In this document: piece by piece, positions 30,259 through 59,300 of the stretch
How the letters are laid out: each line of letters starts with the position of its first letter
Position numbering within the stretch: position 1 is the stretch's first letter
NCBI GenBank assembly: GCA_965112155.1
Contig: OZ218102.1
Source: Podarcis liolepis
Lineage: Eukaryota
Direction: 5' to 3' (one strand)
DNA length: 64,000 bases
Notes under the pieces: generated by a model
What the model saw: the letters and a program-made list of their open reading frames with translations, nothing else
Database searches by the model: none
Told to the model about the DNA's origin: nothing
Translations under genes and position numbers: made by a program

Positions 30259-33200
30259 ATGGCCAGGTGAGGCGATGGGATCGCGGGTCCCCCTCCGGAT
30301 TACCCGCGCCGTCTCCTTTCCGGCATTGCCGGCTTCCTCCTCCTCCTCGTCGTCGTTGTACCCGTGGGCGTGGGTCGCTCCCCGGCTGCTAGGCAGGGCG
30401 GTGGCGACCTTGATGCCGCTGGAAGAGCAGGTGCGCTGTGGGAGCCTTAGGGGCTGGAGTTTGAGACCTCTGGCCCACAAGCGCAGGGGGAGACCAACAA
30501 AGAAATGGAAGGATCCCACAAAGATCTCCTCGATCTGAAAACCAGATATAGCCCAGCACTGATCTGGGTTCGAGATTGCTTGTTGATTGGCATGGCTTTG
30601 GGACAGGGGTTTTGCATTTAGAACAGCTTTGCTGCAGGGATTCTTCCTGAAAGCTTTGGCGTTGCCTTTTGATTTGTGCTCATGGCGCGATCTTCTCTTG
30701 CCGCTCAGAGATTGGGATACACACAGCGTTATCTACCCTTCTCTTCTGCTCCCCTGCCCCTGGTTGACCCTAGTTACAGTGACCCTGTCGGCCTCTTCCC
30801 TTGTTCCCTCTGTGAGGCTGGTATGTCTTAAAAAGCTCTGCTGTTACAGCCAACCTGGCTAGCAGCCACTTAAGTTCAAAGATCACAGCTTGGTGCTAAT
30901 CGGTGCAGGGTAGAAGGGCAGCCCGAACGTGGTCTCTGCAGAGTATCTGTGATTGTTTCCCAGCACTTTAACCCCATTATTATTCAAGTCCCAAATGAAT
31001 GGTTGGGAAAGGGGAAGTGGGAACGAAGAACAGAGTAGCAGAGATTCACCTGCAAGTTAGGAAAGATTGAAAATGTACAATGTACGTCATGCGTGCCATA
31101 CCACAAATCTGTGTTAATGATTATGGCTGCAATCCCGGGGAGTAAGCCCAATGAATATAGTAGGATGTACTTCTGAATGAACATGCATTGTTGGTGATTA
31201 ATTGCAAGCTATTGCTAGCTGACTCAATTGGCTTGTTTAGATGCAAGGTTGCCAATGCCATTAAAATGTCCTTTTAAGACTGCAGCACTCAGTACTCACA
31301 TGGGTCCCGTCTGCTCCTTGTTACATTCCCAGCTGCTTTGGAAGAAGGATCCTCCTGTTCCAAACTTCCAGCTGTAGGCTATGCTGGTTTAGCTGTGTAC
31401 ATTGGAAGCTTTAGCACTTGGATTTCTAAGATCATTTTGTTGGCAAGTACCTGTGGCTGACTGATGAGGCTTTGCTAGACATTTAACAACTGTTTAATCT
31501 GATTTTCCCCTTCTTCCAGGATCAGTTTTTCCTGCCTGTGTCCAGCATCTTGGCACTTCACAGTGCCTTCAGTGAGCCTTTGTCTCCGTCAGCGGCTGGG
31601 CCTGCTGGGCCTCTTACTTGCAGCCAGTATTTTTCTACTTGTGGGAATCACAAATCTATGGCGTTGGAAAACTAGTTCTCGGGACTGGCAGTCTGAAAGG
31701 TGGGTGAATGTGACTGCACTGGCATGAAGCATGCTGAGATAAGGCAAAAAGATGCTTTCAAAGGAGTCAGTCAACTTCCATTGCTTGTATTTCCAAGTTA
31801 GCTAAGCTTTAGCAAAGAATTCTAAATTAATTGCTTCTGAAATGGCTTGTTCATATAGGCGAAAAGGCCACTTTGTACCCCACAAAACGCTTAGAGAGAT
31901 TAGTTAAGAATACGGCACAGTACTGCTCTGAGACAGCTAGGGCAGCCAACAGACTTCTGAGAAACAGTATGTTCTAAAGTAAGGTACAGCAGCACAAAAT
32001 ACCTTTTTTGCACATCTTTGTGAGATAAAGCCAGATATAATTATTTTTTTCCTGCTCTAAAATAGAGGAGAGCTGCAGGAAATGAAATGGGTCTAAGGAA
32101 GCAATTGTCCAGCAAAACAAATTAGTTTATGCATGAAATGAAACCAACCCTAAAGGAAAGTGCTACGCTGTATGGTGTATATTAGGTTTCTTCAGGGTCA
32201 GAAAGTACTGTGTGCCCTTTAATCAAAGCTACGATTATTCTGTACTTTGGGTGTTGTTGGACTTCCAAATCCCATCATGCCTAGCCAACATGACCAATAG
32301 CTGGGGATGATGGGAACTGAAGTTCATCAACGTATGGAGAACCAAGGGTCGCTACCCCTGCTCTAGATGTTGTTGGACTACAAGGCTCATTGTTCCTGAC
32401 CATTGACAATGGCCACTGTTACTAACAGGAGCTGGGAGTCCCAACACCACCTGGGGGGGGGGGACACAGGTTCCTCACCCCTGCTATACATGCTATGCAT
32501 AATGTAGAATCTGGTTTCCTGGAGAAACTGGGGGGAAGGGGAGAGTTAGTAGCACCAAACAAGGCAGCAGTTTCTGTGGCACACAAAGTCCTTCTATCCC
32601 CCTCCTTTCCTCTCTGTTCTTCTACGATCTTGGTCTTGGATTGCAAAATTGGGCATATATTTCTGCATTTTTTGTGTAACACAAATATAGCAGTAGAAAA
32701 GGAGATGCTTGATGGAAAAAACTGCAGAGGAAATGGCAGGGCATATTTCACAGTTCCCATCCAATAGCAAAATGGGAGTGATGGGAAGAAGCCACGTGGA
32801 CTGAGTTCAGCTGGCATTTTCCCACCAACAAAGGCTGAAACCCTTTTAAGCTGGAAGGGGAGGAGGAAGATGCTGCGCTAGTCCTGCTGGGCAGTGCTGT
32901 CACAGGGCTGCTGTTGGCTTTCTTCATTTAGTGAAATGTTGGGAACGAAGGACTGTCAGCGTGTCAACATAAGAACCAAAGTTTAATTGCTGGGAAGTCC
33001 CAAATTTTGAAGGGGTTTTGTCCTTAAATGATGCCCAACGCACGCATATAATGCTCTTCAGTACGTTTGCACAGGGACTGGCAATTCTGCTGCCAGTTGG
33101 TGTTCTGCAGTTGGAAAGTGTGAGGTATCTGGCACAGAAGCAGTTGCTTGAACTGGTTTGCCCACCTTCTTTTACACAGTCCCTGTTTGGGTATTCAGGC

Positions 33201-34362
33201 TTCACATGTAAGCAAACATGTGAGGAGAAGCTGGAGAACTGTGCTGCCAAACCCTCTCCACAGCATCATCTGTACAAAGTTCAGAGCTTTTTCTCTCTCT
33301 CTTTCTCTCTCTGTGTGTGAAGTCCTGATTTAGCAGACTTCTAAATCGCACAAGGAACTGCCATGAGGAGAAGAGGCTTCCCACTTCAGACACCTCACTT
33401 TTCCCTCTGCCCACTCCTCTTAAGATGAGTAAAATTTCAAAATGACTAGATGTGTGACTTGAAGTATTAACACCAGTCTGCTGTTCCTAAAGAAAGGAAG
33501 TTGTCAATAGATATAACACCAGAGGGATAGGAAAGCATAAAAGACAACAAGCAACTCATAAAGAAAACAAAAGGTAAAAAACACACACACAACAAAACTT
33601 CTTAACATTACTAACTGGTTCTTCATTGGTGCTAAATATGCTGGGCAGATTACTAAGAATTAAAAATTACTAAACTAGGAAGTAATTATTTACATTTCTG
33701 TCCGTAAGATGACAAAGAACAGTTCTTTAAGTCAAGGATGAAAGCTGATGATTTTCCATAGGCAATACTGCCTGTCCCCCAGATGTATCTTAAGAAATGA
33801 GGAGATAGTTTTAAGATTCTAAGTTAGGATCCCCCAATCTGAACCAGACTTCTCATGGTCTGCTGGAAAATGACAGTACTTCATCTGAAGCCAGAATTTT
33901 ATTTGATATGCTAAAGAGGGTCTCTCCAGCTGCGGTTCTTTATAAGATTAACAAGTCTAGACTTGTTGATGTTATCACTTTAAAATGGGCCATTAAGATA
34001 AAGGTAGGGTAAATGTTTTGGCAAAAGCCAGCTATTTGCATTTGACAACCACCTTAAACAAGTCATTTTCAGACCAAAGGAGAGATTGGTAATTACTTTT
34101 AATTCACATTTCCTCTAAACTATACATTCACATTGTATACATTCTCTCAGCTTCCCTTATGGCAGGTAGCAACTTGCCTTTAATTTTAAAAGGGCATTCT
34201 GCTGCAGCTTTTGTTTGCATAATATCCAGTAACATCCAGCATTTATTTGCATAACATCCTGCAGTAAATATATTTATTAATTATGGAATGTATATCCTAC
34301 TTTTCTGTCATCATGGAACTCAAGGTAGCATATATAGGATTCCCAGGTGAGCCCATCCTGGC

Positions 34363-34398
<36 letters not shown>

Positions 34399-37300
34399 AA
34401 TAATACCCTGCTCATCTGGCTGGGTTGCCCCAGCCACTCATCAGATGCACACCAGCTTACCTTCAGCAGGTTCATTGCTGGACCTGGGACCAATGCTTGT
34501 GCCTCTTCCTTCAAGAGCAGAGCTGATCCTACAAAATGCATTTAGCTGCATGGCTTTTATTTTTTCGATGTGATGTGGATTGGACAGAATTTTCTTGTTG
34601 GGACAGACTACCAATTACTGTACTCAAATAATGTGACATTCAATGGCTCCTCTAGAACTCAGACTCTGATACACTTCTTGTCCCACCTGACACAGATTAG
34701 AGGGCCAGGCACTGCCTCATCCATGGTAGTCCTACCACATGGCAGGCCTTGGGTCTTCCTGCTTCTCCTCTTCCTTTGCCATTTCCTCCTTCCATGAATG
34801 CTGATGAACAGATGTAAACTAAGACTGATATAGTAGCTTATGCCTTAACTTTTGTGACCTGACCTTCTGTCTGTGATAGGTCTGGCTTCTCCTCCCTCTT
34901 GGATAAGATGCAATTGTATTTGTGCATCTCTTGGCTCCTGTGTCCATGGGGAAATCCAACTGGAATACTTGGGGTGGTGCATGGAATTTGTGAGAGCTGC
35001 TGCTCTAGCTGAGTGCCCAGGGAATCTATGCCCTCTTCTGCAAAAGTCAGGATGTTGGAACATTTGGCCCTATGGCAGTTGGCCGTGGGATGGCCTTCTT
35101 CAAACCCTTGCTTTGTTCCACTGCTGCTGCTGCTGGGTGGGGGAAGCAGCACAGGCTGTGCTGACTGAGCCAGAATTTCCTTCAGCGCAAGAAAGGGGAG
35201 CAGGATCAATAAGAACTGTGGTGGCATGAATTCTCTGTCTAATGGATCTGCAAAACCCACTAATTTGGTTAGTTTTCTTCTTAATGGCTGGACATGCTGT
35301 GGTCTCTCAGTCCTGTTTTCTGATTGCACCGATGAAATGGCACAAAGTGGGTGGGTTGGGATGTCTGCTTCAGTTCTCTGGTTCCTGGGGAGCTGAATCC
35401 AGTGCCTAGGGGGATTCCAATAACTTTCATCTGGTTTCTAGAAGGGGGAACGAGAGCCTCCGCAGGGACTGGATGCACATGCTGGGTCAGCATTGCTTGA
35501 AGCATTTATGGAGAAGTGATATAGGCATTTTGTGTTCCTGTAATTCCTATTATTGCTGTTGTGCAATAATAGACAGCCTCTGAAAAACCAGAGCAGGCGT
35601 TCTATGGAATGCTGGATCTGCCTTTTTATTTTCTTTTAGGGGTGTGAAGACTGGTCTGGTCTCTAACTCTTAACTCCAAATCTTCCTCATTCCCCTTGCA
35701 GGTACCTGGAACGGTTTCATACCTTGGAGGCAACGGACACAAATAACCCATCTCTGAATTACGGGGTGGTTATTGATTGCGGGAGCAGTGGGTCCCGGGT
35801 CTTTGTATACTTTTGGCCACCACACAATGGGAATCCGCACGACCTGCTGGACATCCGGCAGATGCGAGACCGTAACGGCCAGCCTGTTGTCAAGAAGATC
35901 AAGCCAGGTTTGGAGATTTCCAAATGCCCTTTTTTGTTGGTGGCTGTGAACCCACAAGCACCAAGCACCTGGAGGTGGGCAGAGTTGTTCTGTAGAGATG
36001 CCAGCTGAGGGAATATTCCCTTTTCATTGTACAGGGATCTCTACTCTGGCAGCCACTCCAGACAAAGCTAGTGACTACATCAGGCCGCTGCTCAGCTTTG
36101 CTGCTGCCTATGTGCCCAGTACCAAGCACAAGGAGACTCCCCTCTACATTTTGTGCACTGCAGGAATGAGGCTGCTGCCTGACTGGTGAGTGAGCTATAT
36201 TTTTCCAAGACCTGAGCAGAGTAGGCTTGGGAGTGGGGAGCAGGAAGTGCCGGGCCTCTTGAAGCTACAGGTGGACTTGCATCCTGAAGTGGAATGGGAC
36301 AGGGTGTGGGGTGTATCTTCACTATAGCAGTCAAATACAACATTTCCTGTTTCCTAGAGTGGACGCACAGGGGAATGTTGCTCCAAACAGGGAGGACTTC
36401 CTGTCATACCTGCTCTGGAGCATCCTCCCCCTGTGTGCGACCAGGTAGATGGGTGTGACCCTAGCAGACCCTATAAAAGGGCCAGTCATGCAGCCATCTT
36501 CCTCTTTCACTGCTCTTTTGCAACTCCTCTGCTGGCTCTTAGCCAGCAGCACATGGCTCATCCTTACAGAGGATGGAAGCCACAAGGTAGAAAGTCTGAG
36601 GCCTAGCTCAGACTTCTTTTCTCTACAACTGTAACTGTGACTACAAAATAAAGCCTGCCTTCAGGACAATACTGTGAACTGAATGTAAGTAAACTTTATC
36701 ATTACTTTTAAAAGAAGACTGTCATGTCATTATTGTTTTTAAGAGGGAACTAAAGGGGAAATTTACCAGGAACAATCCAATCTGGACAAGCCAGACTGGA
36801 TTGCTCAATTCAAATGATTCTAACAAATCCATCAACTAGCTTCCAGCAATGTGCAAGGGAATGTGCTCTGCTGCTGCTGCTACTACTACTACTACTACTA
36901 ATAATAATAATAATTTATTATTTCTATCCGCTCATCTGGCTGGGTTTCCCCACCCACTCTGGGTGGCTTTCAACAGAACATTAAAAACAGAATAAAACGT
37001 CAAACATTAAAAACTTCCCTAAACAGGGCTGCCTTCAGGTGTCAAGGTGTTCCACAGGGTGGGCACCACTACCGAGAAGGCCCTCTTCCTGGTTCCCTGT
37101 AACCTCACTTCTTGCAGTGAGGGAACCGCCAGAAGGCCCTCGGCGCTGGACCTCAGTGTCCGGGCTGAACGATGGGGATGAAGACTAGCTCACTAACGTG
37201 ACTGAGGAAGGATAATATTTAATCAATATATCCTCTCCTACTATCCACAACATTCCCACACAGGGTTCCCTAACTTGATAGTGAGCAATGGGTCATCTCC

Positions 37301-40300
37301 ACCCCAAGTGGAGCTAAAAATTAAGTCCTGCTTAATGTAGTTGTGTGAGTGTTTGCAGATTCATGGCTGGAAAGAGACCAAGTGAGAAGGGTGACTTGCA
37401 CAGGGGGACAAAAGGACGGGTTTTTGAAATGAGGTGGAGCCTGCTGTTTAGACATCTTGACCATTCAAGACCAGGCAAAGGAGCACTGGAGAAGGGGGTT
37501 CATTTATATTTCAGTAGAAAGAAACGGGAGCTGCTCAGTTTGTCTGCTTGTGGATCTTCGCAGGCAGCAGACGGCCATCCTGGTGGACCTGGTGAGGGAT
37601 GTGCCATTGGAATTTGATTTCCTCTTCTCAGAATCACAGGCAGAAGTGATCTCTGGGAAGCAAGAAGGTAGGTGTTGGGCCAGAAAGCCTCGCTCACTCC
37701 ATCATCACTGTGATGAGGCTGCATTTTAATATTTTAATGTTTCAATATTTTAATGTTGTATTTTAATCTTGTTTTTAAGTTGTATTCATTCAACTTGTTT
37801 TTATTATTGCTTGTTAGCTGCCCTGAGCCCGGCCTTGGCTGGGCGGGCGGGTATAAAAAAAATATATTATTATTATTATTATTATCATCATCATCTTAGG
37901 GAGTTTGGCAAAGGGTGAAGGGAGGGGGGGGGGGAAGGTAGGTAGTGAGGCAGCACTGCGCAGGATCTGGGGGCTTAGCTAGCTGTTACACCAGCTTAAC
38001 TTGTTGTTGGTGGTGCCTGTCCCCTGGGGTTGTTCCCTCCCCTCAAACTTCACAGGGTGCTACTCAAGTCCTGTACCTTCAAGGAACCCAACACTGCTCT
38101 TGATTCTCTTTCTTCCCCCAACCCCAATTTCCCAGGAGTCTATTCTTGGATAGGCATCAACTTTGTATTGGGAAGATTTGACCACGAAGAAGGTGAGACT
38201 GCGGGAAAGGGACAGTGGAGTTGAATGGGTAGGTAGAAGTTTTCTTTTTTGGCTCAGTTCCCTCTTGAGGGAGGGAATCTCCAGCACAGTTTGGTCGATT
38301 CCCAGCAGGAATGGAGATTTGGCTTTCCCACATGACCTGAACTAAGGCCCCTTCCCATTCTGCAGTTTAGCAGGAGCAAGAGAGACTAGAGCTGATCCCC
38401 AGTTCTTCCTGAACTTGTCCCCCCCACCCCCCAAACCATCTCCATTTTCCATTGCTTTGGCAACTCTCTCTTTCTCTTTCTCTCCCTCCCTCTGCGATTG
38501 TAGAGGAAGATGCAGTGATTTCTGTGACCCTGGCTGGCCAGGAAGAAACCCTGGTGCGAAAGAGGACCGTTGGGATCCTGGACATGGGAGGTGCCTCTCT
38601 GCAAATCGCCTATGAGGTGCCGACTTCCACGTCCTTCTCTTCCCCGCAGGAGGTGTGTAGCTTGGGAAGGAAATATGTGCTATGGTCCAGGTTGGGCCCT
38701 GTTTCTTACTCCCGCTCTCCCTCCCCCTGCCACCCTCCCCTCTGTTACTGACAGGAGGAAGCTGCCAAGAGCCTGCTTGCTGATTTCAACCTTGGCTGTG
38801 ACATGCAACACACGAAGCACGTGTACCGAGTCTACGTCAGCACCTTCCTGGGCTTTGGGGGCAACTACGCCCGGCAGCGCTATGAAGAGCTGGTGCTGAA
38901 TCAGACCATCACCCACAACAGGTGATGTCCTCATGCTGCCAGGTTTCAAAAGGCCTGGCTAAAGGCAGCTCTGGATTCCACTGCCCCCAGAAGTCCAAGG
39001 TGTGGCATCCTGGGAGAGGGTGTGTGTTTATTTGTAGAAGGCAGGCTTCCTGAGTGATGAGATCAATGGGAGAAGTTTTTGATGGTCCACATGCATACCT
39101 CTAGCCTGTTTCGGGGTGGCACAGAAGAACTCACCGATCATAACTTGCCGCTGGGGATGTCTGTGTTTTCCCAATCCTGAAGCTTAGGCTCTCGTTGCAG
39201 GTTGCAGGGTGAGCAGCTTGGCGCAAATGCTGGGGTGCCTGTCTTGGACCCCTGCCTGCCTGTGGGACTGGAGGATGTTGTGGAGCATGGCGGCCAGACC
39301 CTGCACATCAAGGGCCAGGGGGACTGGCAGTCGTGTGCGAAGCAAGTGCGCCTCCTGCTGGCGGGAGACAACAGAACCACAGTCTCTCTGCGCAACACCT
39401 ATCAGGCGCCGATTGACTTTGTTAACAGCGAATTCTATGGGTTCTCTGAATTCTACTACTGCACCGAAGATGTGCTGCGCCTGGGAGGACTGTACCACAT
39501 GCCCACGTTCACACGCGCTGCCCAGGTGACTCTAGAATATGTGACCACTTTGCCAGGATAGGCGGTGTTGTTTCTGTGCCCACTCATGTCTTTTGCCTCC
39601 TTCCAGGATTATTGCAGCCTGAGCTGGTCCGTACTGACCCAGAGGTTCCGAGACCACCTATACTCAGCACATGCAGATCTGCACCGTGTCAAGTAAGAAT
39701 CCATTCTTCCCTTTCACAGAGAATGTGCTTGGTCCTTAACTCTTCTTCCATGGACGGTGAAGGGGTGGGGGTAAGATTGCCCCCCAGCAGTCTTCTCAAC
39801 TGATGAGCCTCAGCCCAGCGTATTTGTGATCGAGTCTCTATTCTCTGCTTGCAGGTACCAGTGCTTCAAATCAGCATGGATGCACCAAGTCCTGCACGAA
39901 GGCTTTCATTTCCCCAAGGATTATTCTGGTCTGCGCACAGCCCAGTTGGTGTATGATCGTGAGGTACAATGGACACTGGGAGCCATTCTCTATAAAACTC
40001 GCTTCCTGCCACTCAGGTAATCTAAATTGCTGTCCACTGCATCTTTTCTCATCTTAAGAGTGGTAGAGTTCTTCTGGTTACTTCAGAATCAGTCTTTCAA
40101 ACAAGGTCTTCAGTAAAGAACTGGACCATGGCGCTTGACCTAGGAGTAAAATGCCGGTTTTCTAGCCCTAATTAGAGTGCTCGGTCATCTTAATATGTGA
40201 ACTTGGGAGTAAGCTTCACAGAGTTCAACATGAGGAGGGCTTACTCTCTATAAGCATGCATAGGATTGAGCTTGAAACATGGAAGAGTTCAGTACTCTGT

Positions 40301-40955
40301 GTTTAAAGTCTGAAGTTTCATTTTTTAAACTTGAGAAAGCAAGTGATCTGCCAGCACTGCTTTTCTGAAAAAACAGAAAAGGAGAAAGCAGACGCATGCA
40401 GAGACCTGGTATGTTTTTAAGAGGTACCTAAGGGAGAGACATCAAATGCACGCTCAATGAAGCACAGAGCCTGCATGAAAAGGAAATTGATCCTTTATCA
40501 GTAGGCAACATGGTGTCTTAAATGTTAAAAAACTAAAACCTATGTTTTTGACACCTCTCATCTATTTACAAATGGTCTGTAGGGCATAGGCCTGAGAAAA
40601 GCCAGGTATTTGGGAATCATACTTACTGCAGTATCTGGAATGCTTCTTTGTCTGCTAGTTGCAAGAGATTCAAGCTTAGCGCAGCTTCACATTTCAACTT
40701 CAGACTGATTTTTCTTTGTTTTTCAGGGATCTCCGCCAGGAGAGCATCCACCAACCTCGCAGCCCTTGGCTCCGTCTCTCCTTTGTTTATAACCACTATC
40801 TTTTCTTTGTGTGCATTCTTGTGGTGATGCTTGCAATTGGACTCTACCTCTTCCGTCTGCGCCGCATCCACCAGAAGCAGTTGCACGTGGCACAGCTGGA
40901 CCTGCTGTGGCTAGCAGAGGTGGTGCCGCTGCCAGCGCAGGAGGCAGCCTCCTGA
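30259..40955 (+). CDS. ENTPD7: Ectonucleoside triphosphate diphosphohydrolase 7 (607 aa, 12 coding exons)
   Basis: Coding exons 30259-30266, 31520-31699, 35702-35907, 36035-36185, 37564-37667, 38136-38192, 38504-38652, 38755-38921, 39201-39525, 39607-39692, 39855-40016, 40727-40955; 1824 nt, phases consistent. Apyrase conserved regions DCGSSGSR, TAGMRLL, ISGKQEGVYSWIGINF, DMGGASLQI and WTLGA; N- and C-terminal TM helices. Probable non-coding exon 1 ends at 29901 (GCG|GTAAGT); exon 2 starts at 30165. Confidence 0.95.
34362..34404. repeat. (AAC)n/(AAT)n microsatellite
   Basis: Tail of a reversed LINE fragment. Confidence 0.9.
36371..37257 (+). mobile_element. LTR-like/TIR element with a nested L2-type fragment (ENTPD7 intron)
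   Basis: 10-bp terminal inverted repeat GGGAATGTTG / CAACATTCCC; flanks GCACAG / ACACAG; internal TATAAAA 36472 and AATAAA 36647; reversed L2-like piece at about 36900-37180. Confidence 0.5.
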
Positions 40956-41763: not shown

Positions 41764-41769
41764 AATAAA
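41764..41769 (+). terminator. Probable ENTPD7 polyadenylation signal
   Basis: AATAAA followed by a GU-rich tract (TGGTTGTG..TTGTTGGTTG). Confidence 0.55.
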
Positions 41770-42193
41770 TTATGCTGAACTGTGTAAGCAGAGTTTCTTG
41801 ATGCTGGTTGTGCTGGAAGCTTGTTGGTTGGTGTAGATCACTACTAGCTGTAAAAACCATAATTTCCCACCTGTGCTCAAGAATGAGAACCAATCTACAA
41901 TTGTAGGCCTAAGGAAAAGAACTTGCTTTATTGCTGTATGGTCCTGAACACAATAGGGTTGCTATCATAAATCCTAGTCTGGAAATTTGCAGTGGCTTAG
42001 TTGCTTACTCCACCCGGATAGTTTACTGAAGTGCTCCTTGTCAGGAAACACACACCAATTTTGATTTCAGCCCAATACCAGTTAGATGCTACGGATGGAG
42101 GCTGGAGTATTACCCTAGCTGACTTTGAAGCACTTCTGGGCCCCATATCAGATCTCTTTAACAGAAGACAAAGAAAGCTCACATACTAAAAAA

Positions 42194-42199
42194 TTTATT
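42194..42199 (-). terminator. Probable ATP6V0E2-like polyadenylation signal
   Basis: AATAAA on the minus strand within the inferred last exon; an alternative lies at 41927-41932. Confidence 0.5.
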
Positions 42200-43221
42200 T
42201 TCACGATACCAGTTTACACTCAATAAATACAAATACACAACATTATAAATAATAGTGGAAGGGGGAATTCTAGGCAAATGCATCTTAGTGCAGCAGCCTC
42301 ACTGCTAATGGACAAAGATAGGGAGAGAACAGATCTATTAGGCGAGCATCACCATGTAAAAGGAAGGAAGGTGTCTTGTATCTTGCCCAAGAGGATGTTC
42401 CAGAGCTCCATCAGCAATTATTCAGTCTTAGCGTTCATTACAGGACTTTCAAAATGCAAACATTTTCCCTAACTGCCAAGAGAGGGACATTTAGTTACAA
42501 CATCAAACCCAAGAGCAGATGCCACCAAGATGCATCAATTAAAACAGGTGGGAGATGGCTAAACAAGTGATATGGTCCCTTCATATGTTTGGGTCCTGGC
42601 CCTACTGCTGTGGGGAAATTCAGAGTGCAAACAAAAGATCCATTGAGTTAGTACTGGAAAGGACAAGGGGTGGAGCTGTTATCTAGCATCAGAAGGAAGC
42701 CTAGGAAAAAGAGAAAAAGATTTCTTAGTATTCACCGTACCCCAGCAGGATAGAAGATATCTGGGAACAATCAACCTGTTGCCCTTTTAGTGAGATTTAC
42801 CATAGCTACCTTTTACAGACAATGAGAAAGTGACCTGTCCTATAGAACCACAGAGTGGCAACACTATTGGAGACAGATTACAGGTACCTTTCTGGTTCTA
42901 TTGGTTAAGCCAGGGATGGGACCTATGATTCTCATGTGGCTGGACTATGATCCCTGACTGGCTATATTGGCTTGGGCTAATAGGAGTCAGAATCCAATAA
43001 CGTCTAGAGAACCATAAGTTCCCCATCCCTGGGCTATGCTATTGACAGGTGAGTCAGGCAAGGAACCAAGGAAGGGAATCTTTGTAAACTGGAAGCAAAT
43101 AGATTCCTTTTTCTTACAAGTTAATAATGAGTTGCATCTAATGTATTTGTGTGTTAGTAAGGTAGGTTAGGTAGCGCTGGATAGAGCAAGTACCTGTTGA
43201 ATTGGTTGATAGTGGTCCAGT

Positions 43222-44628
43222 TCACTCCCACAGGAAGCGCACATACCAGATGGTCTCATTCTTCAGCTGGGGTCCAAACAGTGGGTTGGCCTGGGCCAGG
43301 AGTGCTATAAGCCAGCTGCAAGGGAAAGATAGGAAGGAGACATATAAACTGGATCACAACTCCTTTTGCACTAGTGCTGAAATACAAAAAGTCATATTTT
43401 GCAAATAACTGCTAGGTCATTTTTGCAAGTAACAGTTATTCTTATAAAGAGGACAGTATCACTGTAGGAGGGATATAGAATCTAGGGAGCAAGGTCTTGT
43501 AGTTCTTTAAATGTACTACAAGGAGATAAGATCTGCCCTGGTGCATTATGCCTGAGAGTGTCTAGCTTAGCATAACAGCTGAGCCACACAGGATGTTAGG
43601 GCAGCCAGAACAATCTAGTGCTTTGGTGTATGATCAGAGATGGTCTAAGGCTTGTTATGGGATGCAAAATCCACTCCTTGTTCATATATGGGGTCCTGGG
43701 AGCATCATGCATGAATGATGCTAGGACATATTGGAAGAGACAGTGTACCATGATCCAATATTACCCAAAAGCTTATTTTATGAGAGAGAGGCAGGCTGTT
43801 TATGCACCTATGTGTAGAATAAGGACCTGGCTTGAGCATCTCCAAGGTGGTGTATACAGGAGAGCCTCTTCTATTTGGGATTCCTTCCTAGATTCCCAAT
43901 ATTCAGGAAGCAGCCAGTTAGATAAAGTTATGAGGGTGGTTGATTTCCTGCTGGGTACAACCCAGCCCTACACCCACAACCTATCTCCCCTACGCAATAC
44001 TCACAAGAGATAGCAGGAAATGGCTGTGGTCACCAGCATGGTAATAATCACTCTGTGAAGTGAAAAAAATGAAAAAGGAAAAAGATTAAGTAAAGCTGCA
44101 ATCCTAACCCTACTTACCTGGGAGTAAACCCCCCTGAATATATTAGGAATTACTTCTGAGTAGACATGGATAGGATTGTGCTGTTACTGAAACAATCAAG
44201 GGGGTCACACAGGAGAAAGGATTCCCAGATCAGGCACTCCTCAACGCTCTTCCTCCCTGCTTCCACACCCCGACTCCTATATACCGTGTTCATAAGAGAA
44301 AAATACCCTAGCCCAGCCCTTTGGCTGCTATACTAGTTTGCTATTTGCAGGGTCGTTGGTGTTTCCAACGCGAGGGAGCATTCATAAATGTGACCCCACA
44401 CACACACACTTGGCAGTCTGAAGCGATGCGGAGTCCCATTCACAGCATCCGTGGATCAGGCCGCCTTCAAGGCCAAAGGCGGCTGCGGAGAAGGAAAGCC
44501 TGCGAGTGTCGCACTTGCGGGGGAAGCGGGTGCGGGTGCCTGCTAAAGTCTTTGTGTGTGTCATGTCATCTCCCAATATATCAGTATCTCTATATAGTGA
44601 TCTTTTTGGATATATAGGTCATTCTCAC

Positions 44629-44674
<46 letters not shown>

Positions 44675-44952
44675 CTTCTATCTAGATATAGATACAGATA
44701 TTCTCAAAGCCTTTAGCAGGGACCACCACCACCCTTCCCTCGCAATTATAGATCACAATGCATATATTGATCTATTTGGCGATGGCGATGACCGTGAGAC
44801 CTGGCGATGGATCGGGCGGGCGGAGGCTGCGCGGGCGGGGAGCCTCACCCGCGGTTGGGCCCCTTGGGCACGAGCCAGGGCCCGGCGATTCCCACGAGCC
44901 CCCAGAAGACCGAGAAGAGGATGATCGGCAGCGCGAAGCTGTGCGCCGTCAT
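43222..44952 (-). CDS. ATP6V0E2: V-type proton ATPase V0 subunit e (e2-like), 81 aa, 3 coding exons plus a 3'-UTR exon
   Basis: Exons 44952-44849, 44052-44005, 43315-43222 (104+48+94=246 nt) give [81 protein letters not shown]. The termini MTAHSFALP and WYVRFLWE resemble e2, not e1. Probable 3'-UTR intron 43193-42701 (CAG|GTACTT ... TTTTTCCTAG). Orthology to E2 versus a separate paralog is unresolved. Confidence 0.9.
44632..44673. repeat. (ATCT)n microsatellite
   Basis: About 10 TATC units in intron 1 of the ATP6V0E2-like gene. Confidence 0.92.
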
Positions 44953-45300
44953 AGCGAGGCAGGTTGGGAGCGACCGAAGGGATGAAGGACAAGAAGCCGC
45001 CGCCGCCGAGACCGCAAGAAGAGTGAGTCTCCGCCCCTCCGCCGGTCGCTTCCTTCGCTTCTGGCCCGGTCCGCAACCAATCAGAATTCCGTGCGCCCTC
45101 CCGGTGTTTTTCCCCCTTCGCGACCCCGTATTTTGGAGCCTCGGTTCCGAATGGAGTTGCCTGTGTCGTACCGCCCCCTGCTGCCTCGGAGGGTGTATTG
45201 CGAGGAGCGGAGAAGGCAGGTCGAATCTTACTCGAATCATTGCAGGCAAGGGCATCGTATAGGCGTCCGCCGGGGTTGGGGTAGTTGCTCCCTCTAATGA
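44953..45300 (-). promoter_or_regulatory. CpG-island promoter of the ATP6V0E2-like gene
   Basis: CpG-rich; CCAATC 45077-45082, a GC box near 45031 and a CTCF-like motif at 45171-45184. Confidence 0.65.
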
Positions 45301-47175
45301 GCCATGATCACCAGATTTACAGGTTTTTATTCCCCCCGCCCCGCTTTACAGAAAGGTTATAGAATTTGTAGACCCAGATATGAACAAAAATGTGCAGGCA
45401 CCAATCTCCACCTTGATTTTGTGAGACTTACCCCTCCAACCTTTCAGAGTTTCTATCCATTTTAGGCCATTTCTATAACTCTTAAAAAATACAAAAACTC
45501 CTCTAACTGGTGTACAGAAAACAAGCTGATCAGAAAATTTTACGAATATGATGTTATGTATAAAAATGTTACATTACTGCAACATTACTAATACATAGAA
45601 ACCAGTATCAGTTCCTTCTCCTTCTGACACCCATCCCCTCTCAGTATCCTGGCTCTCACTAAGCGCATTCATTGATTTCTGCCTAATGAATTTCTACCTA
45701 ATGAATGAAGCAATGGATGACATTAAGGAAACTAGATCTAGCCAATTTAATACTTGAGTGAAACACCTGTGTCTCCGCTCTTGGTTTGGTTTAAAGCCTT
45801 TAATGCCGGTCTTCACTGCTTGTGAAGTGAATGCTACCCCACTGAAAACAAGTCAGGAATCCAATACTGGCAAGCAATGTATAAAAGAAAAAGGTAGCAG
45901 CAAAGACAGTAAGTAGTCCATCATCTTTCAAAGTCACATTTCATGGCAAAGAATGTCCCTCCCAGCATCTGCAAACACTTTAAAGGATACTCTGCTGCCA
46001 ATCTGCCATAATTATACCTATATTGAAACAGGCTGGGCTGGGGCTGATTCCATGTTAGGCTCATTTTGCTGGGAGGCAGCGGTAGGGAACCGCAGTAGTG
46101 TAGTACAACTCTGAATTGTAGGGTACATGATAGGGCTTTTTAGGGAAATGAAGCAAAGTGGGAGACTGTGAAGTTGAGTGTAGCAGCACTGCCCAGGAAA
46201 GAATCAGGACTGAGTGAAAAGCCATCTACCCATTGTAGCAGGTCAACCCACTGAGAAGGAAAGGGATAAATGTGTAATACAAGTTTCTCAGGGGTCTACC
46301 CAAGTCTAGGAAGTCACCTGATCCACCAGAATTGTTAGATATGTTCTCTGCTGCTAGTTATGTTTATTTACTCATTTGCAGCATTTACTCCCCCCCACCC
46401 TCCCCAGAAAAAATCCTTTGTGGATATTGATGTTAATGAAACGTGTTCCAAATCAACCCACTCATGTGCCTGTTTGAAAGCTACCACAGGCATCTGGTTG
46501 GCAACTGAGAACAAGATGATGGACTTAATGGAGCCTTTGGTTTGCTGCAGCAGTTTATTATGAAGGTACATTGCATAGGGACATTGTAAGAGCAGTCAGT
46601 TTTAAAATACTGAGATATTGAGAAATATTGAGAAACTATTTTTATTAAATAAGGAAAGGACTGTGGGTCTTCTGCATGGTTAAATTACAGTGCACATTTC
46701 AATATTCTAATGCAAAAAATTGCACTCAAACCCCATTCTGCTAAAGAAAATCCACTAACTAGGCCACCCATCACCCTTATAATACAGTTTTGAAATGCCT
46801 TCATTTGCTATTCATCCAAATTTCTAGGCCCACACACCCCATAATCCATTGTCTATATCAAGCCTACAAAGAATGTAAAAGGCTCATGGCTGTAGCCTCA
46901 TACAGATAGCTCAGCAGGAACCGAGACACACCTCAAGCGACCATCATTCTTGCCAGAGCCCACCTTGTCAGCCTCACACCTTAAGCAAAGGATGGTGATT
47001 CATGTTCACCAAGTTTTGCAACAAAGCACTTCAACTCATGACATCAAGGTGCTGCTCAGCCTCGCCTTCTGTTCAAATCAAGGCTTTCAGGAAGAGGAGC
47101 ATACAACACGTGGGGCAAAGGCAGCAACCGTGAACCTTCAGCACTAGCAGAGGCTGGCTAAATAGGGAAGCAGGG

Positions 47176-50100
47176 TTATTTCGGGATCCGCTTCAGTTCA
47201 TGCATCAGCCACAACGCCACACTGAGCAGTACCAGGGAACCTGATTGATGAGTGGCTGCTAAAGGAGTTGGGACATACAGGAGAAGTGTGCTGATGCCCA
47301 GGGTAACCTGCAGAGGAGCAAGAATAAAATGAAGTTACAGACGTAAGCAAAGTTTGCTTACCAGTATACCTGAAATGTAGAAGTATGTGCAAATACATCT
47401 GCATCGTATTCTTATAGCACAGAATTATACACAAGAAGCTTCATAAGCAATTGGCATAGGGATTTTTATATGTTCCGTCTCTCTCCCACTGTAAATAACC
47501 TGCTACAGGATGAGGTAGCTGTCATAGTGCTTCATGATAAAATGCTAATGAAACTGTACTGATGTTCCCCCTTTGCCTTCTCAGTTTAAACCCAGAAGGC
47601 AGAGAAGGGCAGTGACCATAGCACTGTGCAGTATTTCCACAGAAGAGCACGACTGCAGCTCTATTTCCCCCCTTTGTTCGTCAAAGCCAAATAAATAAAT
47701 AAATAAAAATTGGTCCCCACCAATTTCAGTTTTAAATGCCTGAGACCAGCAACCAAGATAGCATTATCAGTGACGAGAAGGCAGGCACCTACCTGGAAGG
47801 AAGGGGAAACCTGCCATTCCATCAGAGGACACTACTAAGTGACAATTAAAAGGGTGTTTTAAAGGGCATAGTTAATACCTGGAGGTATGCCACAGCCAGT
47901 AAGGAAGCAACTGCCATCCTTGTCCTCCGTGGGAGAGGAATCTTCCTGGAAAACAGGTACAGACCTGTAATGGCTGCGACAGAGGAAACTCCCTAAAGGG
48001 TAAAGAGTAAATATCCAGTGAGGGAACCAGAGAAGCTTTGCAATGACAACAAAGGGCTTAGAAGTGGAGTTGGAAGGGATCTTAAAAGGTCATCTAGTCC
48101 AAAGGCAATGCAGGAACCTCACTACTACAGCATCCCTGACAATCCAGCCTCTGAAAAAGAGTCCATCACTTCTGGGGCAGTCTGCTCCTCTTTCAAAAAA
48201 CTCACGTCATCATGATGTTCTCCTTAATGTTTAGACTAACCCCCCCCTTTGTAACTTGCACCCTTTAATTAGAGACAGTGGAGATGGAAACCAGTACTTT
48301 AGGCATGCAAGCAAGTGCTCTACTCTGAGTTAAGGGGCCTGCATTCCCACATTCCCAGTTACACTGCCACCTGGCATGAACACAAACCCAAGAACGGCAA
48401 CCAATTAAAAAAGAGGTGTTATCTAAGAGCATAAAGAGGAAGAAACATACCAGAATCCTGTGATCAAACTGCACGGTTGTGGGATTCTCAAATATGTTCT
48501 TCAACTTTGGGGAAAAGGCAAGGAGATCATCAGGGATCCAGCGTTCCCCCATCTTGGGAAATGAATTGTATACAAGACCAGCATCCAGTCCTGCCACAAA
48601 TGCCCCTAGAGTTCCAGAGAAGAGAGTCTGTCACACTTGTAAGTATGAATGTAATAGAACAAGCCACCTAAAAACCATCACGGTGAGAGTTTTAGGTCCT
48701 TCCCTCAAGGCCACGAAACAGTTCCCAGTGATGTTGTCTGACCAGCATGAAGAGGAAGCATTTCAGTAACCTGGAATTGAAAAAGTCTAGACCCTCCCAA
48801 TGGGAAATGAAGCAAGAAACATATATCCATGACCATGCTGTCTATTGCTTCTCAAAAGAAAGAGATTGGTGCAAAAGTGTCAGGGACTTTTACCTGAGAG
48901 GGCAGTGAGAAAGATCAGGCCTGATGTTCCATGAGCAAACCTTCTTAGGCGCAGGAGTTGACGGGTTTCTGGTAACTGTCAAAACAGGAGGAGGATCACA
49001 AGAATATGCAATGGCCTTTTTATATATTCTAAAGGGAGTATGTGCAAAGGAAACTAGTGTTCCATAGGCTCAGCATTTATACACGTTTCCAATAAGACTC
49101 CTGACAGAAGAGGAACGTATTTATTTCACTCTCAATGGCTAAGGCAGCAAGGACTTCTGCTCTTCTCACTCAGCTGTTATGCTGCACGGCCCTTAATGGA
49201 CATGGCTTACATCCAATTATATCTATGAACCCAAATCTACCAAATTTTATAGAAATCACCAGGCGTTCTTGGAAGCAGCCAGATAGCATCTGCATGCTTG
49301 ATTTAATCCTGTGAAGTCACCATCCCCAAGACCAGATCCACAGGCACCAGAAGCATCTACTGCCTGGATGTGTAGGGCAAAAGTGCATGGCAATATCTTC
49401 TGTGGCAAGGATGCGGCCTTGCTAGAACTGGGGAAGTTGTGGCAGACTGCACTGTAAGAAATGGAATAGCTCATGCCAGGCTGAATTCTTCTCAGTCTGC
49501 ATTTCTCCTGATATGCTTTCTTAAATAACTACCCTCTTAAGAGGCCATCCTACCAAGTGAACTATGAGGGTGCAGTGTTGTGTGGGCTCTCCTTTCTTCC
49601 CTTTTCGTGTGATGCTCCGAAGCAGTGGCTGTGATCACCATAAAGGGATTGGAAACCCTACCTGAGAAGTGAAACCCTACCTAATATGAGAATTGGCAAC
49701 AGGCGCTAGTTTTGCATGTGATGCAGGAGTGTGTGCCTCCCACTGCACGTTCATTGGCTCCCTCTATGCATGGGAGTGTCAATGCTAACAGAGTTCTTGA
49801 CTGGTAAGCTTTGGTGGTGTTTCTAGGAACGTTATCTCTTTGACATTTCCCAAGATTTGTAATTTTCCTCTTCCAGGCTGAGCACATGTAGCATACAGTG
49901 GCAGTTTGGTCTGCACAGTGGCAGTGTGCCTCCCTCCAAAGGCGCAATTGGTGTACAGGCTTTCTTGGCCCAACTGGGACTCAATACATGCCCCCAGTCT
50001 CCCTCACTTTTTGCTTACCTTGTGCTGCGGCAGCAGTAATGAGAGTCCAGTCCACAGGCTGTAGCAGTAAAGAACAAGTGCAGAGCCCAGGTGTGCGGCT

Positions 50101-53066
50101 AGACGGTACTGACTGACCCGTGGGATATCATGAGAGTCTGGCTTTTCCTCTAATCCACTTTTTACCATATACCAGCCCAATAGGCCCTGCCAAAACAAAG
50201 AAAAAGTACCATAGAGGCATGAAACTAAGACCACTTTTGCTCCTGCCAATATCATGTACATTCTCTTTCAAGGAACTAAGATCTAACAACACTCCAAGCA
50301 CCATGATCTGAAGCTTCTGCTGGGCTTCTGTGCACCAGAGACCTAAGATCACATACAAATCAGCTCCTGGAGCGTGCAAAGGATCAATGCCTTTCATGTT
50401 CTATCTCAGTTATCTTGGGCAGAGTAATTTAATGATTCATTTAACAATTTCAAGGTCCCAGTGATCTTTCCCACCTGGAAGCAGACAAGTCCACAGAGGG
50501 CAACGACACGACCCTTCAGGGACCGGTTGAGGTAACCCTTCCTCCAGAAGTAAGCTGCGGGAAGGATGTAAGCCAGTCCAACAAGCCGTCCCCACATTCG
50601 GTGTGAATACTCCATGTACCAGATGAATTTGAACTCTGTCAGCGTCATGTTGTGGTTCAGGCTGTTAGATTCAGAAAGAAGGTTTATAAAACAACAACAA
50701 ACCCTGCAGTAAGGTGTAGTTGCCCATTCCCCTCTTTCCATGGCAAGTTCTATCAAGAAGTAGCATTCAAGATACTCTTTTTTTCTCATTTCCCTTTTGC
50801 TGGGATAGTAGAATAGGCTCTCCCCCCCCCCATTTAATTTTAGTCTCTAGGAACTTTAGCTCAACCCATGCATACATTTTAAATTCTGGGAATTGCTGGT
50901 AGTTTTGGAATTCTGCTTCCCACTCCTGCTGTGTCCGAGGAGGCTTCATCTCCCGCACAAGATGCCAGTCAACCATTGAAAGCCCAGACTCTGTCAGCCT
51001 GAGAAGGAAAGAACAGCAATGACACACCATTGAGGGAAGATGCTATCAATGTGGGATATAATGGTGTGTGCATGTGTATCCATCTATCTAGAAAAGCAGA
51101 ATGAAGCCACAATGGGAAAATTCAGACACAAATGCAGATGCAAAGTCTGACTACACACAAACATACCGGTGATCAATTAGATGCAAATATATATGTAATC
51201 ACACCTTTTAAATTCTGAAATAGTCTAAATTAACTACCATACCTCAAAAGGTTGTTATGACTGTAAGTACAAAAAGTATTTATTTGTTACCCTTTAATCC
51301 CACCTTTCTTTTACTGCCTGCATTGTTTATCTACAATGCATTTAGAAAATAAGGGTAGACACAGGCATTCAAAGGGCAGAGAGATACCAGAAGTTAGTTT
51401 AGGCCCACACACTGGCATGACCAAGAGGAAGCAATGCCCCTAGGAAGATCTCTGCTGGTTGCAGAAAGATACAATCTATGACAGTTGGAGAACCATAGTG
51501 TCAAGGGTAAATAAAATATAGTAAAGGCTTGAAGAGGAGGTGCTAATTTTCCTTACCTAGTGACACCACCCAACACCACAGCTCCGGCCACAGTACCACT
51601 GCATATTAGAAGCCAGCGCCCTACAGCCCGGTTGGTCACAGCATTGGGGACAGGTGGTACCACCACTCTGGGATGGGAAGCAACTTCTGACACTACACTG
51701 TGTTGTGACCGTCTCTGTGGGAGCTGCCACCACCGTTGACATTGCTGAGGACAGAGAAGGTAGTGAGGAGGCTGTTTATAATTATGCCACCCCACTAAAC
51801 ATACATTTGCAATTCATGACATGGAAGAGGAGCATTACTCAAGATGTATGAACTCTCTTTGCTGTAAAGAGTTCACACCTGTGTTCACTACATCAGAAAG
51901 GTTGTATTAAGTGCCAGACATTATTCTACAAAATACAAGGACAAGGATAAAGGACCAGATCATCAATGGTGCAAGCACAAAAAAACTGGACAACAGGAAT
52001 GTCAACAGCTATTCACTGAGATGCTCAGCAAAACTTATTTTTATTTTCAATATGTTCTTAAGCGTCCTGCTTGTGGAATCTTCAGAAGCACTTGGCTGGC
52101 CACCATTAGCAAAAAGAGGTTGAACTCCAGGGACTCTTAAGTGTGATCCAGTAGGGTTTTCATATGTTATTTAAATGCTGAAAGCATATGGAGGGGAAAG
52201 TGTTCATGTTTTTACAGGGCCTGTGACCATTTAATAAAATGTGATGTTATATTCATAATTGTTATTTTATTTGTTTAAAACATGTATACACTACTCTGTC
52301 ATCTAGGTGGGACCAGAGTAGTTCACGGTATGGAACCTTTTTTAAAAAAAATCCTATACTAAAATACTTAAAACTATGAAGCATTACACCTATTGTTAAA
52401 ATTAGAGAGAGACTTACGCATTTAACTGGTGCACATTTAGCTATATGTGCTTGGCAAATTAAAACATAATTAAAAAGAGGACAAGCGTCCAGGGAAAAAG
52501 ACTTTGGCAATCCCACCTACCATTGAACCTAATGTGTTTTGATGATATGTGAATTTTGATTTAGGCATGATTCCTGGAATGTAACCCCGCATAGGTTGAG
52601 GGCTTGCTGTGGTTATACAAGTGAAATATTTTGGCAGTCACCGAAACTCCTAGTCTTCAGTCTGCCCCCTTTAACGTGTCTGGTTGTGACAGGTGCAGGC
52701 AATAGTCTGTAGTTTTTTTTTAATATCCCCCCATAATTAGAGGTCCCCACGTGAAAATGAGGTAGCATTGATTAGCACCTCCCACAGTGCAAAGGATGCA
52801 CAAGGGCGGAAACTCCTGGCATTTTCCCCAGCAGCGTGTCTTAGCGAGGGTGATAGCAGGTACTCAGCCTGCTCGCAAGGCTAAGAAACGAGGAGCCGCC
52901 GGGGGTGGCTTCGTTTTGCAACCCTCGGCCGATAAAGAGGCATCTTTGACCCGGTCCCCGTTGCTATGGAAACCAAGCGCCGCCCCTGGAGTACCTGGCC
53001 GGGGGACCCCGTTCCTCGTGGGGCCAGCAACAGCCGAGACCCTCTTAGTGCCGCCCGCAAGAGCAT
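47176..53066 (-). CDS. COX15: Heme A synthase / cytochrome c oxidase assembly protein COX15 (406 aa, 9 exons)
   Basis: Exons 53066-52995, 51744-51557, 50998-50876, 50661-50475, 50186-50019, 48975-48894, 48605-48451, 47992-47879, 47307-47176; 1221 nt in frame. Motifs [41 protein letters not shown] and ATHQSGS. The Arg-rich N-terminus looks like a mitochondrial presequence. Confidence 0.95.
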
Positions 53067-56300: not shown

Positions 56301-59300
56301 ATTCAGAGGTTTAATGTGTGACCCTGTTGCAGGTGCTGGCCGCCTTGAACTGTGTGCCAACCTCATGGAAGGAGGAACAACACCTACTATAGGTGAGTTG
56401 GCACATACAAGCAAGATCCAATCCACCATTTCACTGCAAGATGTAGCAGTACTGAGCAGCCAAGCAATGTGGAGAAATGTTTGGACCTCTGCCCTCCAGG
56501 CCCTCTACTCCTGGAACAGAAAGAAAATACCTGTTGTTCTGCTTGCTCTTTTTGTGTTCTTCTGTGTCATCAGCACCTCCTGGTCTTTTTGCAAGACAGG
56601 CTGTTATTTAATCACCCTATTTCACCTTCCCTCCTTCAGCAGCCCCTTCTCCCAAATTCTGCAGAAAGGGTTTGACATCTGCCCTGTTCTCTTCTCCCTT
56701 GCTTCTCTTAGACCCAGTGCTGATGGTCTAGCTCTGGGATGGGGAACGTGTGGCTCTCCAGATGTTGTTGGACTCCAACTCGCCTCAGCCTAAACGGTCA
56801 GTGGTCAGTTGATTGGAGCTGTAGTTCACCAACATCTGGAGGGCATCTTGTTGCCTACTCCAGACATAGGCAGAACTGACCTAGATGGCTCAGTGGTCTC
56901 CCTTTGTATGAGGCATCTTGCTATGTTCCTAAGTTCCTCCGTACCATGTTCTAGGTTTCACTTCTTGTCCAACTCATAGAACAATCCAGTACAAAACTGA
57001 CACCATGTCCCAAACATGTTTGCCTGCAGGCCTTTTGCAAGTGGTGAAGCAGTGTATAAGGGTGCCTGTATTTGTGATGATCCGCCCCCGTGGGGGGGAT
57101 TTCCTCTATTCTGACCGAGAAGTGGAGGTGATGAAAGCAGACATCCGACTTGCCAAACAACATGGGGCTGATGGGTTGGTGTTTGGAGCCTTGACTGAGG
57201 ATGGACGTGTGGATACAGAGCTCTGCACAGCACTGCTGGGTGAGCAGGCTTTACTTTTCAATGGGCTTATTTGGTACTTGAGTAGTGATTGTCATACAGT
57301 GCCACCAGCTAATAATTCCATGGTTCAAATTAAGAAATATTTCCTACAGGCAAGATCCACGAGATACTAGAGCCTGCCTCACTATATTGAGCTATTCATT
57401 CATTTACAGTATAAGAGAACATCTAGTCCACCCTTCATCATGTGATCCCAGGGTGGGTTACAGTTGAATAAAAACAATGCAGCACAATTTATAAAAACAT
57501 ATATAAATGGAGCTTATTAGGGGGGAAACGGCCATGGTGCTACAGTCTCTTCAGTTGCAGAAGTGACGGAACTTCTGACTCCTCACTCCAAAAAAAAGAG
57601 GCTGGGGAAATATTGAAGTTTCACCTGATGCCAAAATGACAACAGCGCTTTAGCACCAGTCGTGCTCCTAGGGCAGTCTACATCAAGCTGGTATCCTCCA
57701 GATGTTTGGGGCTATAACTCCCATTAGCCCCAGCTAATTTGACAAAGGCTGCTCTAGAGGGAGGACATTCCATAGGTCATTCCATAAATGAATGAATTAT
57801 TCAGATAAAGCAGGAGCCAAATGCTGTAATGGTTGGGATGAGTGACCTTTGTTTGTAAGAAGGGGCACTGTGCAGCTCTGATGGAGAGAGTGTTAGGCAG
57901 CCATAAATTCTGTACAGAAGGGAGAATTATCCAGAAGAATAGGAAACTTTTTTGAAAGAATGATAACACTATGGTTTTTCTGGACCCTCAAAAATGCAAA
58001 GAAAATAATTACTAGCTATTTTCTCTATTTAACTGAAACTGACAGTATATCTTCTGAAGAAGAATTAGTCTTTTTAAAATAAATTTTTATTAAGGTTTCA
58101 CAGATTTTTTAAGACAAACACAACAAAGCAAACAACACACAAAAACAAATAACAAGCATAACTTCAAATCCTTATTTTCATATAACTTACTTCCCCGACT
58201 TCCCCATACCTCCCCTTTCTGCATTCCAGTTTCAAATTTTGGTTCAGCAAATCCTTACTCTTAATTTTATCTAATTTATAACCTTTTTCTTTTAACTTAA
58301 TCCTTACAGCTGTGAACCACTTGATTTTTAAAACTGAAGAAGAATTAGTCTTGCTAGGGGAAGCCTGTCCTCTCCCTGCATGCCCCCCAAAATTGGCTCT
58401 AGCTAGGTGAAGTCTATGGGACGCGGGTGGCACTGTGGGTAAAACCTCAGCGCCTAGGACTTGCCGATCGTCAGGTCGGTGGTTCGAATCCCCGCGGCGG
58501 GGTGCGCTCCCGTTGCTCGGTCCCAGCGCCTGCCAACCTAGCAGTTTGAAAGCACCCCCGGGTGCAAGTAGATAAATAGGGACCCCTTACTAGCGGGAAG
58601 GTAAACGGCGTTTCCGTGTGCTGCGCCGGCTCACCAGATGCAGCTTGTCACGCTGGCCACGTGACCCGGAAGTGTCTCCAGACAGCGCTGGCCCCCGGCC
58701 TCTTAAGCGAGATGGGCACGCAACCCCAGAGTCGGACACGACTGGCCCATACAGGCAGGGGTACCTTTACCTTTACCTTTAGGTGAAGCGTGTCCTCTTC
58801 CTGCATGTCCCCCGCCCCCCCCAGAACAGCACACAGAAGGAGGAAAGGTGGGGAAAGTTCTGTGAGGCAAGCTGAAATACAGCAGCTAAACTATTTTAAC
58901 CAGAAGCCAGTATCCATTCACTCCATGGTTCATTATTCCACAGGCTACCTAGGGAAACGAGTGGATACATCTATAGTCTACACCAGAATTACTTTTTAAA
59001 ATAAGTGCATAAGCCCAACATGTGTGAGGGGTTTGATACACAAAATGTGAAAAGAAATGCCATACAAAGAGCTAGCTAGTGGGCAGTCTTAGTGGAAATG
59101 AGAAAGGATGATGAATCCATATTGCAGAAATGGTGTCAGATGACTACAGCCACCTTGGTTGAACCATCTGGAGAAGTTTCCTTTCTTTCCAGGGCCAGTA
59201 GCAGAAGCACTGCCTTCACAAAGCCAACCCCTAAGCAAAGGTATACTAACCATCTGGGATCTGTTCTTTTTGCAGCTGCTTCCCGCCCTCTGCCAGTCAC

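Follow-up and report, generated by a model that had tools for sequence, protein, structure and literature searches.

Within a window of 64,000 nucleotides of Podarcis liolepis DNA (contig OZ218102.1), we found a gene for subunit e of the V-ATPase, ATP6V0E2, between an ENTPD gene and COX15, two genes that we take to be directly adjacent in human. As judged from Pfam domains, the genes of the window follow in the order homeodomain (plus strand), Mito_carr (minus), GDA1_CD39 (plus), ATP6V0E2 (minus), COX15-CtaA (minus) and CutC (plus), with the five neighbouring domains at 18.3, 25.5–28.9, 35.7–40.0, 48–51 and 57–60 kb, respectively. The carrier is SLC25A28, as three of its exons match squamate mitoferrin-2 at 95–99% but mitoferrin-1 at 63–76%; position was the basis for naming ENTPD7, as opposed to ENTPD4, and NKX2-3, as opposed to other NK4 genes. 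Poly(A) signals were seen at 41764 and 42222 (plus strand) for the ENTPD gene and at 42199–42194 (minus strand) for ATP6V0E2, and use of the signal at 42222 would make the 3′ ends of the two genes overlap. Pfam also matched the final ENTPD exon to a membrane protein of astroviruses (E 0.0067, below the cut-off), which we put down to chance similarity between hydrophobic sequences.

Table 1. Features of ATP6V0E2 and of its neighbours in the window
Feature	Position	Strand	Basis
NK4-gene homeodomain exon (NKX2-3 by position)	18326..18651	+	Pfam
SLC25A28 (mitoferrin-2) coding exons	25557..29071	-	Pfam, protein identity
GDA1/CD39 gene (ENTPD7 by position), tail-to-tail with ATP6V0E2	31520..40955	+	Pfam
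ATP6V0E2 predicted last untranslated exon	42194..42473	-	Poly(A) signal 42199-42194, Rhineura homology 42468-42385
ATP6V0E2 predicted 3′-UTR intron, alternative acceptor 42701	42474..43193	-	Sequence, Rhineura homology
ATP6V0E2 exon 3 untranslated end, 28 nt, predicted	43194..43221	-	Donor in sequence
ATP6V0E2 exon 3 coding part, 94 nt including stop, encodes Asn70 sequon	43222..43315	-	Sequence, PDB, PF05493
ATP6V0E2 intron 2, phase 2, GT-AG	43316..44004	-	Sequence
ATP6V0E2 coding exon 2, 48 nt (16 residues)	44005..44052	-	Sequence
ATP6V0E2 intron 1, phase 2, GT-AG	44053..44848	-	Sequence
ATP6V0E2 coding exon 1, 104 nt, residues 1-35	44849..44952	-	Sequence, PDB e2 match, PF05493
ATP6V0E2 5′ UTR and putative CpG-island promoter region	44953..45320	-	Base composition, CCAAT/GC boxes; predicted
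COX15 coding exons found, first exon left unmapped	47879..51744	-	Pfam
CUTC coding exons found	56980..59783	+	Pfam

A preliminary description of this DNA had reported a complete e2-like coding sequence of 81 amino acids in coding exons of 104, 48 and 94 nt, with a CpG-rich start and an origin other than retroposition, and all of this stood. The three coding exons, 246 nt in total, encode 81 residues with zero internal stops, and are bounded by GT donors and by AG acceptors rich in pyrimidines. A processed retrocopy is excluded by the two GT-AG introns in the coding region, which stand at conserved junctions. The start of the gene is spanned by a CpG island (44701–45320; GC 0.61, CpG observed/expected 0.97 versus 0.47 window-wide), a putative promoter, with a CCAAT box at 45077 and GC boxes at 45031 and 45171. 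In a Pfam profile search PF05493 was matched by exon 1 (E 2e-5) and exon 3 (E 3e-4), and both exons scored higher against the e2 than against the e1 chains of PDB (65 versus 42 bits for exon 1; 58.7 versus 49.5 bits for exon 3). The equivalent of the 16-residue exon 2 is skipped in gene models of emu, tuatara and capuchin. The predicted 3′-UTR intron opens with a GT donor 28 nt past the stop (intron start 43193) and has two candidate acceptors, 42701 and 42473, of which the latter is homologous to the acceptor of the Rhineura RefSeq model XP_061492323.1 (68% over 28 amino acids, E 1.5e-10).

Two further features of the gene were noted. Exon 3 contains an internal candidate donor after 43247 (minus strand), just ahead of the stop, the like of which is used in gene models of Rhineura, sea turtle, frogs, whale shark, a teleost and several mammals, leading to unrelated C-terminal tails; in the window its use would yield frames of 74–81 residues. 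This donor is likely a by-product of the codons it lies in. Intron 1 contains a tetranucleotide microsatellite at about 44627–44673.

We compared the window protein with 164 proteins. In 81 of 81 residues it equals the RefSeq ‘subunit e 2' of Podarcis muralis (XP_028586442.1) and Lacerta agilis (XP_033005811.1), both within homolog record P0135 of a PF05493 cluster; no difference from the ATP6V0E2 of these lacertids was found. This identity fits the lacertid origin implied in the preliminary description. Full-length mammalian e2 records agree with it in 68–71 of 81 residues and e1 records in at most 56 of 80. Its alignment to vertebrate e proteins is gapless, with Asn70 kept. Mammalian ATP6V0E2 (human 7q36; PDB 6VQ6_e and 6XBW_e) differs from it in residues but shares its clade, its length and the footprints of its junctions. 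Judged by its protein, the gene is an ordinary lacertid ATP6V0E2, the annotated ortholog of e2. It is not an unnamed gene, a possibility raised in the preliminary description, because RefSeq already gives the protein the e2 name in lacertids.

A quick tree of 95 rows contained two clades, e1 and e2, and no third e clade. In a careful tree of 32 rows, hand-picked to span the groups (81 columns), support was 100/97 for the e1/e2 split, 98/93 for tetrapod e2 and 98/90 for the grouping of sauropsid with mammalian e2. Both trees cover jawed vertebrates. The e1 and the e2 clade each contain cartilaginous and bony vertebrates, and on these trees the e1/e2 duplication predates the split of sharks and bony fish. 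ATP6V0E1, the gene of the NKX2-5 block, likewise matches PF05493, has 81 amino acids, is oriented in the same way towards its NK4 gene and ancestrally has a CREBRF-family gene behind it, but it has formed its own clade since before that split. Additional e2-like records were seen in Scyliorhinus canicula, where a second one lies on another chromosome and is three residues off the first, and in Ochotona princeps (records P0317, P0318 and P0311 cover both species); these are probably lineage-specific copies.

The preliminary description had also proposed a separate paralog that mammals lost, which would give squamates an extra V0 e isoform. The window gene would then be an ohnolog lost in mammals, and mammalian E2 would derive from another ancient copy that reptiles may keep. 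Stated as hidden paralogy, the ENTPD7-linked e gene and mammalian ATP6V0E2 would be different ancient copies, and lacertids would carry both together with e1, that is, three V0 e isoforms. An approximately unbiased (AU) test gives such a history some room: a topology in which all non-mammalian e2 exclude mammalian E2 had a log-likelihood 12.5 lower but was not rejected, with p 0.146 on 81 columns, where the test has little power. Indeed, joining sauropsid e2 to e1 was also kept on the same columns (p 0.152), which indicates that power is low. In addition, the homologs covered were the best 120 of 170 clusters, and 15 of the 29 members of the squamate e2 cluster. However, no third clade appeared among the 95 rows, and mammalian E2 groups with the window gene, with sauropsid e2 and inside tetrapod e2 at the support values given above. 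Tiliqua, Varanus, Rhineura, Sceloporus, Anolis, Ophiophagus and Thamnophis have one e1-type and one e2-type protein each among the matches listed. The four NK4 loci published in PMC12019251 correspond to human chromosomes 10, 8, 5 and 4, and not to chromosome 7, and reciprocal losses would be required in every non-mammalian line. We consider a third paralog, in either wording, very improbable, and favour the two-clade reading, in which the window gene and mammalian E2 are orthologs.

The position of the gene is old. In the tables of PMC12019251 (Nat Commun 2025) atp6v0e2 is placed beside ENTPD7 in chicken, Xenopus and gar, and in the same block in zebra shark. According to Supplementary Data 2 of that paper, chicken ATP6V0E2 lies on chromosome 6, 675 bp from ENTPD7, and Xenopus atp6v0e2 on chromosome 7, 2,228 bp from entpd7; the order is atp6v0e2–crebrfl–entpd7 in gar and entpd4l–crebrfl–atp6v0e2 in zebra shark. 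The strand pattern in the window is that of the chicken, Xenopus, gar and zebra shark tables, and the neighbours and their order are the same; the table rows include no squamate and do not list COX15. The Entrez ids of chicken CUTC, COX15 and SLC25A28 run 423829, 423830 and 423832 (PMC5207668 supplement, PMC12019251), while the chicken Ensembl ids in the PMC5207668 supplement are non-positional for ATP6V0E2. The thorny skate rows of PMC12019251 list no atp6v0e2 in the block; by public records, however, thorny skate e2 is on the same chromosome as SLC25A28.

To extend the comparison, we set public e2 records against SLC25A28 records in the 39 non-mammalian species in which both genes were seen, leaving out species with a single one of them. 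Co-location was read from contigs of equal size to the base or from accessions no more than 15 apart, which are proxies and not gene maps; in merged rows, accessions were allotted to species by their number series. The two genes were on contigs of the same size in 24 of the 27 species with both sizes, and had accessions within 15 of each other in 15 of the 31 with both accessions. By either sign they are co-located in 32 of 39 species, covering lizards, snakes, a tortoise, a finch, frogs, a newt, gar, bowfin, sturgeons, a tarpon, sharks and rays; in Lacerta agilis the e2 accession is three numbers from that of mitoferrin-2. The remaining seven gave no such sign, either through an accession gap only (Tiliqua, Hemitrygon, Leucoraja, Callorhinchus) or because the genes are on different contigs (Polyodon, Conger, Anguilla). 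The last three, a paddlefish and two eels, each have an extra genome duplication. The final 36 residues of one unnamed COX15 model match, at 97%, the last exon of an e2 isoform from the sea turtle Lepidochelys, which places COX15 immediately upstream of e2, and on its strand, in that turtle too. Among the records used, several ray and coelacanth proteins named mitoferrin-1 or mitoferrin-1-like at NCBI (P0231, P0232, P0235, P0224) rank with mitoferrin-2, and those of the rays are on the same contig as e2; they are probably SLC25A28 under a wrong name.

A recent transposition of e2 into the ENTPD7–COX15 gap, specific to lacertids or squamates, would agree with human and mouse, which have no e2 in the block according to the rows of PMC12019251. 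Outgroup coordinates refute it, since e2 stands there in the same orientation in chicken, Xenopus, gar and zebra shark, and it is within 15 accessions of SLC25A28 in snakes, anoles, a monitor, a tortoise, frogs, a newt, bowfin and sturgeons. We therefore leave it practically no probability. The ENTPD7–COX15 gap is the ancient vertebrate site of e2, in line with the earlier proposal of an ancestral E2 site that mammals later left. Both this site and the E1/E2 pairing have been published before, in the Fig. 1A legend and Supplementary Data 2 of PMC12019251.

We then considered how the two e genes came to lie in two NK4 blocks. As listed in PMC12019251, NK4 loci share the neighbours atp6v0e1/2, crebrf/rfl, entpd4/7 and slc25a28/37 and are called ohnologs, which agrees with the preliminary suggestion that an ATP6V0E gene beside NKX2-3, SLC25A28 and ENTPD7 fits the NK paralogon. 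The two blocks share paralog pairs in like order, e1–CREBRF–BNIP1–NKX2-5 in one and e2–crebrfl–entpd7–slc25a28–nkx3.3–nkx2.3 in the other. Human ATP6V0E1–CREBRF–BNIP1–NKX2-5 has the same e-to-NK4 orientation as the window (PMC12019251), and stickleback e1 stays beside NKX2-5 and BNIP1A (PMC5719529). The ancestral order may have been e–CREBRF–(BNIP1)–ENTPD4/7–SLC25A28/37–NK3–NK4. Gar, sturgeon and zebra shark keep a CREBRF-like gene right behind e2, just as e1 keeps CREBRF, and tetrapods would have lost that of e2. In keeping with this, e2 is joined in two gene models of Acipenser sinensis to a bZIP protein (records P0293–P0295) that resembles a ‘CREB3 regulatory factor' record one accession from the e2 of A. 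ruthenus. A tblastn search of the window with two sturgeon proteins found no CREBRF-like remnant in the stretch at 41000–42200 between e2 and ENTPD7 (best E 0.66), in contrast to gar and zebra shark, where crebrfl is kept between these genes. The CREBRF-like gene behind e2 is a second loss from the block, in tetrapods: kept in sturgeons, gar and zebra shark, it is unlisted in frog and chicken and undetected in the window.

It is also conceivable that a small-scale duplication early in vertebrates, and not a whole-genome duplication, brought e2 to the block. The lancelet rows of PMC12019251 show CREBRF, ENTPD4 and BNIP1 together and list no e gene, and the e trees cover jawed vertebrates only. 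Against it, a CREBRF-like gene adjoins e2 in gar, sturgeon and zebra shark, as CREBRF does e1, within a block of several paralog pairs, and both e clades include sharks and bony fish. We regard this origin as improbable; e1 and e2 are likely ohnologs that whole-genome duplication left in the NKX2-5 and NKX2-3 blocks, respectively. If, as modelled in PMC12019251, 1R separated the nkx2.3 locus from that of nkx2.5, e1 and e2 would date from this first duplication.

Mammals differ from this arrangement. Human ATP6V0E2 is at chr7:149,872,968–149,880,713, spanning 7.7 kb (PMC6276090), near ACTR3C (PMC6531610), and ENTPD7 is on human chromosome 10 (PMC12019251); cattle ATP6V0E2 is on chromosome 4, 0.9 Mb from SLC4A2 (PMC2891616). 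The mammalian gene thus lies in another chromosomal neighbourhood than the window gene, and the human and mouse rows for the NKX2-3 block in PMC12019251 list no E2. Dasyurid e2 records are on contigs of at most 316.8 Mb, and dunnart SLC25A28 is on a contig of 684.6 Mb, which suggests that e2 had likely left the block by the time marsupials and placentals diverged. The e2 record of echidna is on a contig of 25.4 Mb. The public SLC25A28 records searched included none from a monotreme, and the supplements of PMC8081666 and PMC11710854 gave no match to the gene names.

The form of the mammalian gene points to how it moved. The isoform records of mammals break off in one of three ways: where exon 1 ends, by omission of precisely exon 2, or through the internal donor of exon 3. 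Since these breaks coincide with the three junctions of the lizard gene, the mammalian introns likely stand in the same places, and retention of introns in mammalian E2 makes a duplication at the DNA level, with loss of the old copy, more likely than retroposition. In the mammal line an intron-bearing copy of e2 would have come to lie at another site (7q36 in human), and the original would then have been lost, likely before the marsupial and placental lines diverged. We think it quite probable that such an intron-preserving move of ATP6V0E2 took place in the mammalian stem and is as yet undescribed. Among the open-licence PubMed Central and bioRxiv papers searched (the top results of the broad searches), none stated or dated it. 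Taken as a whole, we hold with high confidence that the window carries an intact lacertid ATP6V0E2 at a site shared with chicken, Xenopus, gar and zebra shark, that it is likely a whole-genome-duplication ohnolog of e1, and that a move at the DNA level likely took mammalian E2 away from this site.

Subunit e is laid out as two helices, known from structures, and the window protein has two hydrophobic stretches that, from the alignment, are predicted to form them. By analogy with mammalian e2, which is known to assemble into V0 next to subunit a (PMC11269182), lizard e2 would be a small two-helix membrane subunit of V0, packed against subunit a. The N-x-T sequon at Asn70 is kept in the window protein, and its predicted luminal C-terminus would be glycosylated there. 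Mouse synaptic vesicles contain e2 as their e isoform, and its luminal part, together with subunit a, contacts synaptophysin (PMC11269182); rat e2 carries a sialylated N-glycan (PMC8143646). The sequon was kept in 15 of 15 squamate e2 rows, and Asn70 was missing in all 13 squamate e1 rows, a difference between squamate ATP6V0E1 and the window e2; the sequon is also kept in the e1 rows shown for tuatara, turtles, birds and mammals. Going by these rows, in squamates e2 would be the sole e isoform glycosylated at Asn70.

Since the gene is the annotated e2 ortholog, the consequences for V-ATPase biology are little. The E1/E2 pair offers a neat example of one ohnolog moving out of its paralogon in mammals, and human-centred synteny screens would likely miss the pair. 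Human e2 expression is restricted, with a bias towards brain and kidney (review table, PMC6276090), and the move in the mammalian stem would be a candidate cause of this restriction in mammals. If the move did bring a change from broad to brain- and kidney-biased expression, the relocation would be linked to the synaptic-vesicle role of mammalian e2.
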